A stretch of 57,265 nucleotides of DNA. Origin: Thermodesulfobacteriota bacterium (lineage in GTDB: Bacteria > Desulfobacterota > GWC2-55-46 > JADFVP01). Made by a program: the position numbers and the translations under genes. The notes beneath the pieces were generated by a model, which did not search any database, had not been told where the DNA came from, and worked only from the letters and a program-made list of their open reading frames with translations. The DNA is taken from positions 1-57,265 of the forward strand of contig DATEAM010000130.1 in NCBI GenBank assembly GCA_035288385.1. Reading direction: 5' to 3'. This document shows positions 36,599-39,405 of this stretch, piece by piece (the first letter of the stretch is position 1; the number at the start of each line of letters is the position of its first letter).

Positions 36599-36648
36599 TG
36601 CCCGCGGCGCCCTCGAAAGGATTATCCCTCCCTCACGGCCAATTCCGC

Positions 36649-36677
36649 TTGACAGGGACTGCATTTTGTATTAAAAT
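36649..36677 (+). promoter_or_regulatory. Near-consensus sigma70 promoter
   Basis: TTGACA (36649-36654), 17-nt spacer, TAAAAT (36672-36677). Confidence 0.6.
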
Positions 36678-36683
36678 AAATGC

Positions 36684-36827
36684 TCTAAAAATATGTTGCT
36701 AATTCCGTGACTGACGGAATCAAGGTGGCCACCACCGGGGAACGGAATCCTTTCTCTATACTGCCGACCGTCTGGGCGAACGAGGTGTGAAAGCTCTATT
36801 CACATTCAAGTCCCGGGCGGTTTTTTT
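36684..36827 (+). ncRNA. Candidate small RNA or terminated leader of about 145 nt (class not recognised)
   Basis: Bounded by the promoter above and by a terminator: ccgtctggg (36768-36776) pairs with cccgggcgg (36812-36820), encloses a second hairpin (gtgtgaa/ttcacat) and is followed by T7 (36821-27). Internally, one ATTCCGT (36702-08) can pair with either of two ACGGAAT copies (36714-20 or 36742-48). The only ORF is a 5-codon one (36693-36710). Confidence 0.4.
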
Positions 36828-36831
36828 GTTT

Positions 36832-36885
36832 CAGGGGGATGAGGGGGGGTAGGCGGGCGGGGGGTACGGGGGGGCGGGGGGGCGG
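36832..36885 (+). repeat. Intergenic G-run block (G5,G7,G3,G6,G7,G7)
   Basis: Direct reading: cagggggatgagggggggtaggcgggcggggggtacgggggggcgggggggcgg. Confidence 0.9.
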
Positions 36886-37091
36886 AGACGACCGCAGGGC
36901 GATGGGGCGGCGCCTTGAGGCCAGGGCGTCAACAGCCCCAAAAGGCTTGACAAAAATGAGATAATCTGGCACAGTTTATGCCTCAAAAAAACTTTCAATA
37001 TAATATGAGGTAGTGGAAGCTTGCCCGGGCCCTCGGGTGATTTACGCCGTAAAATACTCATTACTCATCGAAAAGGAACAGGGAGGTACGA

Positions 37092-39314
37092 ATGGCCTTG
37101 AAGATTAGTTATACGGCAACTGATGAAGCACCCGCTCTTGCGACCTACTCGCTGCTGCCTATCATCAAAGCATTCACGGGCGCGGCCGGCATTGAAGTCG
37201 AAACAAGGGACATCTCTCTTGCGGGAAGGATTATCGCAAACTTCCCCGAGAACCTGACCGAGGCCCAGAGAATACCCGATGAACTGGCCGCCCTCGGAGA
37301 GCTCGCGAAGACGTCCGAGGCCAACATCATAAAGCTCCCGAACATCAGCGCCTCCGTCCCCCAGTTGAAGGCGGCGATCAGGGAATTGAAGGAAAAAGGC
37401 CATGACGTCCCGGACTATCCGGAGGAGCCGAAAAACGACGCGGAAAAGGCCGTCAAGGCCAGATACGCCAAGGTGCTGGGAAGCGCCGTAAACCCCGTTC
37501 TAAGAGAAGGCAACTCGGACCGCAGAGCGCCGGGCTCGGTAAAAAATTACGCGAAAAAGCACCCTCACTCGATGGGCGCATGGAGCAAGGACTCGAAGAC
37601 GCATGTGGCGACCATGACGAGTGGAGATTTCCGCTCCAACGAGAAGTCCACGGCCATGACCGGGGCAACGGATGCGAGAATCGAGTTTGTCGCCAAGGAC
37701 GGCCTGGTCACGGTCCTGAAGGAAAGGCTTCCGCTCAAGGCCGGTGAAGTCGTTGACGCGACCTTCATGAGCAGGAAGGCCCTGGTAAAATTCATCGAGG
37801 AACAGATAGAGGACGCGAAGAAAAAGGGCGTCTTGTTCTCGTTGCACATGAAGGCCACGATGATGAAGATCTCGGACCCCGTCATCTTCGGCCATGCCGT
37901 CAGGGTCTTCTTCAAGGACGTTTTTGAAAAACACGCGGCCGTGTTGGCGAAGCTCGGCTTTGACGCCAACAACGGCCTGGGCGACCTCTATGCGAGGATC
38001 AAGAATCTCCCCGAGGCCCAGAGGGCGGAGATCGAGGCGGACATTCAGGCCTGTTACGGGAAGCGGCCCCAACTCGCCATGGTGAACTCGGACAAGGGCA
38101 TCACGAACCTCCATGTGCCGAGCGACGTGATTATAGACGCGTCCATGCCCGCCATGATTCGCTCCTCCGGGCAGATGTGGGGCCCCGACGGCAAGCTTCA
38201 CGACACCAAGGCGGTAATCCCCGACCACAGCTACTCGAGCCTCTACCAGGCGACGATCGACAACTGCAGGAAACACGGCGCCTTTGACCCCCGGACGATG
38301 GGGACGGTGCCGAACGTGGGCCTCATGGCGCAAAAGGCGGAGGAATACGGCTCTCACGACAAGACCTTCACGGCTCCCGGAAAGGGCACTATCCGTATTG
38401 TCGACGCCTCAGGCAGGACGATCCTCGAAAATGCCGTGGAAGAGGGCGATATCTGGCGCAGTTGCCAGGTAAAGGACCTGCCGATACAGGACTGGATAAA
38501 GCTGGCGGTAACCAGGGCGAGGGCGACCGGGGCCCCTGCGGTCTTCTGGCTGGACAAAGACAGGGCGCACGACGCCCAGCTCATAGAAAAGGTAAACCGC
38601 TATTTGCCGGACCACGACACAGATGGGCTCGAGATACGTATCATGTCGGTGGCCGAGGCGGCCCGGTTCTCCCTCGAGAGGATGCGCGAAGGCAAGGACA
38701 CCATTTCGGTCACAGGCAACGTACTGCGCGATTACAACACGGACCTTTTCCCGATCCTTGAACTGGGCACCAGCGCAAAAATGCTCTCCATCGTTCCCCT
38801 CATGAACGGCGGAGGGCTCTTTGAGACGGGTGCCGGCGGCTCGGCGCCAAAACACGTCCAGCAGTTTCTTGAGGAAGGGCACCTGAGATGGGATTCCCTC
38901 GGAGAATTCCTGGCCCTTGCCGCGTCTTTGGAGCATCTCGCCAACGCGAGCAATAATAAAAAGGCTCAAATACTGGCGGATACCCTCGACCAGGCTACGG
39001 GCAAGTTTCTGGACAGCAACAAATCCCCTTCCCGCAAGGTCGGCGAGCTGGACAACCGCGGGAGCCATTTCTACCTCGCCCTGTACTGGGCCGAGGCCCT
39101 GGCCGCCCAGACCGAGTATAAGGACCTTCAGGCTCGTTTTGCAAAGCTCGCCAAGGAGCTCGGAGCCAACGAGGCCAGGATTGTCAAAGAGCTGAATGCG
39201 GCCCAGGGAAGGCCCGTCGATATAGGCGGCTATTACTTCCCCGACGCGAAATTGGCCGCAAAGGCGATGCGTCCCAGCGCGACCTTCAATGCGGCCATGG
39301 ATGCCGTCTCATAA
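37092..39314 (+). CDS. icd: Monomeric NADP-dependent isocitrate dehydrogenase (about 740 aa type)
   Basis: The N-terminus [24 protein letters not shown] is diagnostic of the monomeric IDH family, as is the 740-aa length. An SD GGGAGG lies 6 nt upstream. Confidence 0.93.
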
Positions 39315-39405
39315 GGACCTGCGGAAAAAGGCCTGACAGCACGTATCAGGCAATTGCATGAACTTGTTGATTTTTTTGTGTAAAATAGACTAATGGAGGT
39401 GCCCG

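Follow-up and report, generated by a model that had tools for sequence, protein, structure and literature searches.

Monomeric NADP-dependent isocitrate dehydrogenases (IDHs), described in Azotobacter vinelandii (PDB 1ITW and 1J1W) and Corynebacterium glutamicum (2B0T), are single chains of about 740 amino acids. Riboswitches of the ZMP/ZTP class (5-aminoimidazole-4-carboxamide riboside 5'-mono- and triphosphate) have been described as controlling purine and 10-formyl-tetrahydrofolate (10-formyl-THF) genes,(PMC7266159) and a competing helix, formed by strand displacement between the terminator and the 3' sub-domain of the aptamer, is a known design of their ON switches.(PMC7337938, PMC10085676) Here we describe a locus in which the two systems appear to meet: the icd gene on contig DATEAM010000130.1 (C130) of the Thermodesulfobacteriota bacterium assembly GCA_035288385.1 (genome G000; 2.0 Mb in 235 contigs, 57.6% GC, 92% complete). 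The whole contig, 57,265 nucleotides long, is referred to as the window. An earlier note on this DNA had singled out icd as a sharp codon-usage outlier, probably acquired recently by horizontal transfer and, it was suggested, recruited beside the ATP-citrate lyase genes (aclB and aclA) into a reductive tricarboxylic acid (TCA) module. We consider it likely instead that icd is an old gene of a conserved cluster, that its codon oddity extends across the order, that related lineages have exchanged its alleles at a fixed position, and that it is regulated by a ZTP riboswitch behind one promoter (P1) together with a second promoter (P2).

The icd product is predicted to be a monomeric (type III) NADP-isocitrate dehydrogenase. 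In profile searches it matched PF03971 over the full model (positions 1-734 of 734; 1337 bits) and TIGR00178 over residues 4-739 (1360.5 bits, cut-off 950), and it aligned with the A. vinelandii enzyme (1ITW) over residues 4-737 with zero gaps (1228 bits). The residues that we take to bind the substrate, the metal and the NADP 2'-phosphate in 1ITW (S132, N135, R139, R145, K255, D350, Y420, R547, D548, D552, H589, R600, and R649) are identical at 13 of 13 positions in the alignment with the G000 enzyme. Apart from icd, the assembly has a single Iso_dh-family gene, which lies on contig C100, matches over 348 positions, and is presumably the usual leuB-type paralogue. Chlorobium limicola also has a monomeric NADP-IDH, and in the IDH tree the Chlorobium sequence shares a large clade with that of G000. 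Unlike the known monomeric enzymes, the G000 protein is known here from its sequence, and its gene lies directly upstream of aclBA, behind a predicted ZTP riboswitch.

To place the locus among its relatives, we searched 40 genomes of the same order and compared up to 20 kb around icd from 35 of them; family (f1-f8) and genus (g1-g4) labels are those assigned in the genome source, G000 belonging to genus g1 of family f1. The host is an uncultured ATP-citrate-lyase lineage, taken here as carrying out the reductive TCA cycle; in NCBI its members appear under Thermodesulfobacteriota, Nitrospinota, or Deltaproteobacteria. A monomeric IDH occurs in 39 of the 41 genomes, G000 included; the 14 from the family of G000 all have it, with identities of 71-84%. 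The block rpsA-sppA-ihfB-HIT-icd-aclB-aclA-SPOR-miaB is common to families f1 (g1, g3, and g4), f2, f3, f4, f5, f7, and f8. Genus g2 alone has icd elsewhere, and it is the one exception to the synteny of aclB and aclA with icd, which otherwise holds in every family. At the g2 loci (L111, L112, L117-L119, L123, and L126), icd lies apart from aclBA without a ZTP riboswitch, and several of these copies have in common another upstream hairpin, GGCCAACATCGGCATCTT...GGATGATG.GATGTTGG, with a T run after it.

In the phylogenies, icd of G000 pairs with a genus of its own family. The G000 IDH is sister to that of genus g4 (support 100/98 under LG+C20 with 64 sequences; 99/96 on 25 genomes), and the AclBA tree also joins G000 and g4 as sisters (support 99). 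The protein is 84% identical to its g4 counterpart and at most 77% identical to any sampled sequence from outside the order. We also sought an external donor by synonymous excess, defined as the codon identity of two genes beyond that expected from each gene's own usage, and found none close among the sampled outgroups (maximum 0.19); the two outgroups with the highest values are probably members of the order under other labels. Neither a mobility gene nor a tRNA borders icd, the neighbouring open reading frames (ORFs) being HIT and aclB and the only tRNA of the window lying at position 17283.

These observations bear on a recent import of icd from an unrelated donor with Escherichia coli-like codons, inserted by aclBA and recruited to the reductive TCA module. 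Such an event would account for the outlier status of the gene in codons and oligonucleotides, which is real, and for the direction of the shift (ATC/ATT, CTG, GCG, GAA, and CGY), which resembles mesophilic proteobacteria; trees of monomeric IDH also mix phyla. We nevertheless judge it very improbable, given the synteny and riboswitch shared across the order, the g4 sister relationship in both trees, the greater identity to g4 than to any sequence outside the order, the low synonymous similarity to outgroups, the borders free of mobility genes and tRNAs, and a codon deficit that the orthologues share. The synteny check that the earlier note had proposed thus speaks against recent acquisition, and the proposed recruitment beside the ATP-citrate lyase genes does not hold, the HIT-icd-aclBA arrangement being already common to seven families. 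In our reading, icd has long belonged to the core of a conserved HIT - ZTP leader - icd - aclB - aclA cluster.

The codon anomaly itself is well founded. Among 1,614 genes called on the 2.0-Mb assembly with a simple codon-model ORF picker, isoleucine is encoded by ATA, ATC, and ATT at fractions of.62,.30, and.07. The 41 isoleucine codons of icd comprise 10 ATA, 22 ATC, and 9 ATT (.24/.54/.22), which corresponds to a binomial z of -4.96 for ATA, rank 1 of 1,614 genes, and to the lowest ATA fraction among the 254 genes of at least 500 codons. CTG (.15 to.34), GAA (.21 to.43), GCG (.25 to.39), CGT (.03 to.11), TTG, and AAT are raised relative to the genome, and AGG (.61 to.42), CTC (.57 to.37), GCC, GAG, and GGG are lowered. 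The length-adjusted log-likelihood also sets icd apart (z = -6.0, rank 27 of 1,614), and the anomaly as a whole goes far beyond chance. Its tetranucleotide correlation falls in the lowest 5.8% of 2.2-kb windows and its dinucleotide delta* in the top 2.8%; the GC content at third codon positions is ordinary (.767 vs.784). On a crude multivariate measure of relative synonymous codon usage (RSCU) icd is unremarkable (rank 246 of 953), indicating that the anomaly is concentrated in certain families of codons and is neither global nor a matter of base composition; principal component analysis of RSCU was uninformative, being dominated by noise from Cys and His. A class of core genes with the signature of icd was looked for and rejected, the genes most similar to icd in codons being probable false ORFs, membrane proteins, and one PAS/GGDEF protein.

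The earlier description of the gene therefore survives in most respects. The outlier status is borne out by the per-gene codon and tetranucleotide statistics of the contig's genome, and HIT, aclB, and aclA beside icd keep the host codon pattern, as had been noted for HIT and aclB. The atypical 490-bp region upstream and the 91-bp spacer downstream likewise match what had been described. As for the further shifts claimed, the rise of CTG, TTG, GCG, GAA, and CGT was found, and that of AAA was not (.28 vs.25).

The oddity is not confined to G000. In 19 of the 19 relatives with flanking genes available, the ATA fraction of icd lies below that of its flanks (.20-.60 vs.41-.77), and AGR and CTC are also lower in icd than in the flanks in most of them. 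The low-GC metagenome relatives show the contrast as well (.27-.31 in icd vs.43-.56 in the flanks); a Nitrospiraceae outgroup that hardly uses ATA has none. The strongest deficits (.20-.28) occur in G000, the g4 genomes, G018, and G023. The codon oddity is thus a property of icd throughout the order, and the contrast is sharpest in G000, whose genome is at the biased extreme. Since the orthologues share the ATA deficit, it marks no transfer into G000. At four-fold sites the icd genes of most relatives are saturated relative to that of G000, so the shared deficit cannot be a single inherited relic.

We examined several causes for the deficit, none of which accounted for it. Expression-linked bias was rejected: EF-G, GroEL, RpoB/C, L7/L12, L10, L1, L11, and V-ATPase subunits have ATA fractions of.50-.80, and aclA and aclB are normal (EF-Tu and DnaK, for which no complete ORFs were found, are outside this comparison). 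The neighbouring-base context predicts 25 ATA codons in icd, where 10 are observed. The ATA fraction is.35 at conserved and.39 at variable isoleucine columns, which rejects a conserved-site effect, and no hot spot of synonymous constraint was found that would point to an embedded element. A codon tuning common to ZTP-controlled genes, for instance to aid translation under folate stress, was rejected as well: no gene of the genome prefers ATA more strongly than rnfC, and AAA is unenriched in icd. The rnfC gene (contig C17, 3916-5250), with 26 ATA among 29 isoleucine codons (z +3.07), stands at the opposite extreme to icd, although both lie behind a ZTP riboswitch.

Selection on icd itself, for example avoidance of ATA for the accuracy or speed of translation, would explain why the deficit appears in all ATA-using relatives. 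The tree conflicts described below would then be artefacts, arising because the protein is highly conserved and its internal branches are short; those of the IDH tree measure 0.02-0.06. We regard this explanation as unlikely: other conserved or abundant proteins use ATA normally, conserved and variable isoleucine columns are alike, the overall synonymous constraint of icd (0.122) is on a par with that of its flanks (0.087-0.110), and the conflicts are strongly significant in both directions under a site-heterogeneous model.

The icd gene also has a history separate from that of its neighbours. In approximately unbiased (AU) tests, the full IDH tree rejected the monophyly of family f1 (delta lnL, the log-likelihood difference, 126; p-AU 3e-5). 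With the same 25 genomes and under that model, IDH rejected both the f1 clade g1+g4+g3 (p-AU 2e-4) and the AclBA-supported clade f1+f5+f8 (p 2e-5). Reciprocally, AclBA rejected the main IDH split (p 0.0015) and did not reject f1 (p 0.175), the AclBA tree following the family labels. The conflict is seen at the scale of the order and is absent at the tip that holds G000. Such a conflict between icd and the adjoining aclBA suggests that segments the size of a gene have recombined within a conserved, operon-like cluster. In G031 (f2), icd is f8-like in both protein and synonymous sites and the adjoining aclBA is f2-like.

Synonymous sites also set icd apart: between G000 and its nearest relatives they are two- to three-fold more similar in icd than in ten flanking genes. 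Between G000 and two g4 genomes, the synonymous excess of icd is 0.36-0.37 (95% interval 0.30-0.41), compared with 0.01-0.18 for ten flanking genes; between G000 and G018 (f5), it is 0.28, the flanks reaching at most 0.16. The excess is spread evenly over the gene. In comparisons with unrelated phyla it averages 0.04, which indicates that site-specific synonymous constraint is weak. In the very close pair G028/G032, icd (0.49) and aclBA (0.51) have similar excess, which speaks against icd having an inherently slow synonymous rate. Judged by the logarithm of the excess, the common ancestor of the G000, g4, and f5 alleles of icd would be about 40-45% as old as that of the flanking genes. Most simply read, related lineages of the order have exchanged icd alleles in place, and not recently. 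Of the horizontal transfer that the earlier note had proposed, then, the recent import fails, and what stands is an icd with its own history, supported by the reciprocal AU rejections and the synonymous excess. Exchange may have contributed to the codon oddity of G000; it cannot explain the order-wide deficit.

This situation resembles known cases in which homologous recombination replaces a core gene in place with a homeologous or xenologous copy, in that the position and regulation of icd are kept while its tree and synonymous age differ from those of adjacent genes. The proposal for icd is drawn from trees and synonymous sites.

A stronger version of the exchange would make the codon oddity of G000 mainly the unfinished amelioration of a near-ATA-free, foreign-type allele that entered one lineage of the order and, once g1, g4, and f5 had diverged, reached them through homologous replacement. 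Here the synonymous age of icd among G000, g4, and G018, under half that of the flanks, would fit, as would the significant tree conflict and the concentration of the strongest deficits in G000, g4, G018, and G023. The G000 icd moreover fits the codon backgrounds of its relatives G034, G006, and G003 better than its own, and a simple estimate puts the ATA fraction of the source allele near 0, as in the outgroups (median.02). However, icd in f8, f2, and the low-GC relatives is saturated relative to that of G000 and yet has the same deficit, so that many independent imports would be needed; no donor was found among the sampled sequences, and the icd of most relatives fits its own genome background best. 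We therefore hold this version to be quite unlikely, and return to an old icd, odd in codons throughout the order, whose alleles were exchanged in place.

Upstream of icd, positions 36697-36784 were identified as a putative ZMP/ZTP riboswitch aptamer on the basis of a match to the full Rfam model (Table 1). Its predicted helices P1-P3, pseudoknot, and competing terminator are shared with the ZTP ON switches of Thermosinus carboxydivorans, Clostridium beijerinckii (pfl), and Fusobacterium ulcerans. Besides the genes that it would control, it differs from the known switches in its pseudoknot, where A-U takes the place of a consensus G-C pair, and in the presence of a second promoter after the terminator and ahead of the gene. 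All aligned aptamer copies have GACG/CGUC where the consensus reads GGCG/CGCC, which represents a double, compensatory change in both pseudoknot strands. Across 23 aptamer sequences, 91.7% of cells are paired and six pairs change on both sides; helix P1 shows compensatory change at five pairs. The covariation score was reached by 0 of 500 shuffles, and slid controls scored far lower, with an alignment fitted to the model, which favours this result.

The 5' strand of the terminator, GACCGUCUGGG (36766-36776), consists of the pseudoknot and the P3 3' strand of the aptamer; it pairs with CCCGGGCGG, after which seven U residues follow. Because the 3' strand of the aptamer and the 5' strand of the terminator are the same segment, ligand binding should prevent termination. 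The terminator design (..CAGRCGG, then a T run) is kept in relatives. We propose that promoter P1 would transcribe the aptamer leader, that ZMP or ZTP would stabilise the aptamer and suppress the terminator, giving an ON switch, and that read-through from P1 into icd, and possibly aclBA, would add to basal transcription from P2. Promoter P1 has equivalents at the icd locus of G025 and at the riboswitch of the rnf genes. Promoter P2, predicted to be dedicated to icd, lies about 120 nt upstream of the gene, with a leader of about 110 nt to the start codon. By eye, its motif (CTTGACAAAA..N..TCTGG..xxxxxT) could be aligned in most relatives, including those that lack the riboswitch, and in G025 it matches the consensus at 11 of 12 positions (TTGACA-18-TAAAAT). 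The G-run block between the terminator and P2 is absent from relatives at the icd site, where the spacers differ.

With a covariance model built from 11 aptamer copies, we found the riboswitch before icd in 22 of 36 in-order loci, in families f1 (g1, g3, and g4), f2, f4, f5, and f8; by the same model it was missing from icd in f3, f7, and g2. Among 79 loci from other phyla, the riboswitch occurred in one only, which groups with f8, and the other 78 were without it. At locus L121 (G022), a small Lys/Ala-rich ORF with histone-like KKAAKK repeats lies between the aptamer and icd, and no terminator T run follows the aptamer.

Several points weigh against the combined picture of an old, swapped, and riboswitch-controlled icd. 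A lower synonymous rate of icd could mimic a younger age; the inference of exchange has a single rate control, the pair G028/G032, and its family labels are those assigned by the source rather than drawn from an independent species tree. For the order-wide ATA deficit, expression, context, ZTP control, and conserved sites were each ruled out as a mechanism. At the promoters, the -10 hexamer of P2 in G000 is weak and was uncalled by the promoter scan, and read-through from P1 into icd is deduced from the sequence.

Table 1. Features predicted at the icd locus, in window coordinates.
Feature	Positions	Strand	Evidence or remark
HIT-family gene, end of the conserved upstream block rpsA-sppA-ihfB-HIT	36113-36598	+	PF01230, 2.2e-13; synteny in relatives
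Promoter P1, TTGACA-17-TAAAAT, ahead of the riboswitch leader	36649-36677	+	11/12 consensus; sole strong promoter-like site in 35800-40800
Putative ZMP/ZTP riboswitch aptamer (pfl motif)	36697-36784	+	RF01750, 54.0 bits, gathering score 39, full model 1-86
Pseudoknot strands GACG / CGUC	36713-36716 / 36769-36772	+	J1/2 with P3 loop
Intrinsic terminator, expression platform	36766-36828	+	minimum-energy fold; encloses a small hairpin
G-run block (G5-G8 runs), G-quadruplex-like on the + strand	36833-36912	+	between terminator and P2
Promoter P2: TTGACA, 17-nt spacer ending TGG, CACAGT	36947-36975	+	ahead of icd
Shine-Dalgarno sequence of icd, GGGAGG	37081-37086	+	
icd, putative monomeric NADP-dependent isocitrate dehydrogenase, 740 aa	37092-39314	+	PF03971, TIGR00178
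Hairpin GCCTGACAGCACGTATCAGGC in the 91-bp icd-aclB spacer	39331-39351		without a T run after it on the + strand
aclB, ATP-citrate lyase gene	39406-40692	+	profile matches
aclA, ATP-citrate lyase gene, 903 aa	40753-43464	+	profile matches

The hairpin in the icd-aclB spacer offers no obvious terminator for icd, and co-transcription of aclBA with icd is possible. The AclA protein matches the succinyl-CoA-ligase alpha subunit at residues 24-303 and, weakly, citryl-CoA lyase at residues 622-896 (E 5e-9); the approximately 300 residues between these parts match nothing, and the length is kept in relatives (903-905 aa). The HIT gene is always the immediate upstream neighbour of the riboswitch, and the top curated (NCBIfam) match of its product is an ATP adenylyltransferase of the diadenosine tetraphosphate (Ap4A) phosphorylase type, at 152 bits, under the cut-off of 290.

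The assembly holds one further aptamer copy, on contig C17 (3664-3757), found by nhmmer and scoring 59.3 bits in Rfam. This copy (locus L129, 3611-9266) has its own promoter at 3611-3640 and precedes rnfCDGEAB; the aptamer is followed, ahead of rnfC, by a terminator and perhaps by a weak second promoter, in the same layout as at icd. No aptamer was found at purine or folate genes by nhmmer and regular-expression searches of the 92%-complete assembly. The two copies precede icd and rnfCDGEAB, not the genes of purine and 10-formyl-THF metabolism expected of the class.

A metagenome scan for the A-U variant of the aptamer matched 105 stretches, 80 of which were fetched as loci (L130-L209). The first downstream gene encodes IDH at 21 loci, RnfC at 11, a class-V aminotransferase (AGXT/BhcA-like) at eight, PntA at three, SucC at two, formate-THF ligase (fhs) at two, and an NfnA-like flavoprotein at one. 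Named from N-terminal sequences only, PurE (four loci), IMP cyclohydrolase (PurO; three), FolC (three), and PflB (three) were also present. The proteins on the IDH, RnfC, aminotransferase, and SucC contigs are approximately 70-80% identical to those of G000, indicating that these contigs come from the same lineage. Locus L207 carries two aptamer copies, one before an nfnA-like gene and one before pntA.

Judged from the genes behind these aptamers, the predicted regulon centres on the reductive TCA cycle and on providing the cell with ferredoxin and NADPH. A full-text search of the literature, with subscription-only papers outside its scope, returned no link of ZTP riboswitches to isocitrate dehydrogenase, Rnf, transhydrogenase, or ATP-citrate lyase. 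We regard it as possible, if short of probable, that the ZTP switch was re-targeted in this lineage from purine and folate genes to genes of carbon fixation and reducing power: icd, possibly aclBA, Rnf, sucC, and a glyoxylate/serine-type aminotransferase, with pntA and an nfnA-like gene in more distant relatives. In that case, a cell short of 10-formyl-THF or purines would increase its reductive TCA flux and its supply of NADPH and reduced ferredoxin. Separately, and with the same reserve, icd may be a hot spot of in-place allele replacement among vertically inherited neighbours.

The icd gene serves as a worked example of a sharp codon outlier that is no recent import: as its orthologues share the bias, codon statistics alone would mislead genome scans. 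Of the two results, we consider the regulatory one, a ZTP riboswitch kept before icd and rnf in an ATP-citrate-lyase lineage, more interesting than the codon outlier. ZTP riboswitches are seen as guardians of purine and one-carbon metabolism. If they act as proposed, the conserved copies before icd and ATP-citrate lyase and before Rnf would connect the alarmone of folate stress with CO2 fixation and with the provision of ferredoxin and NADPH.

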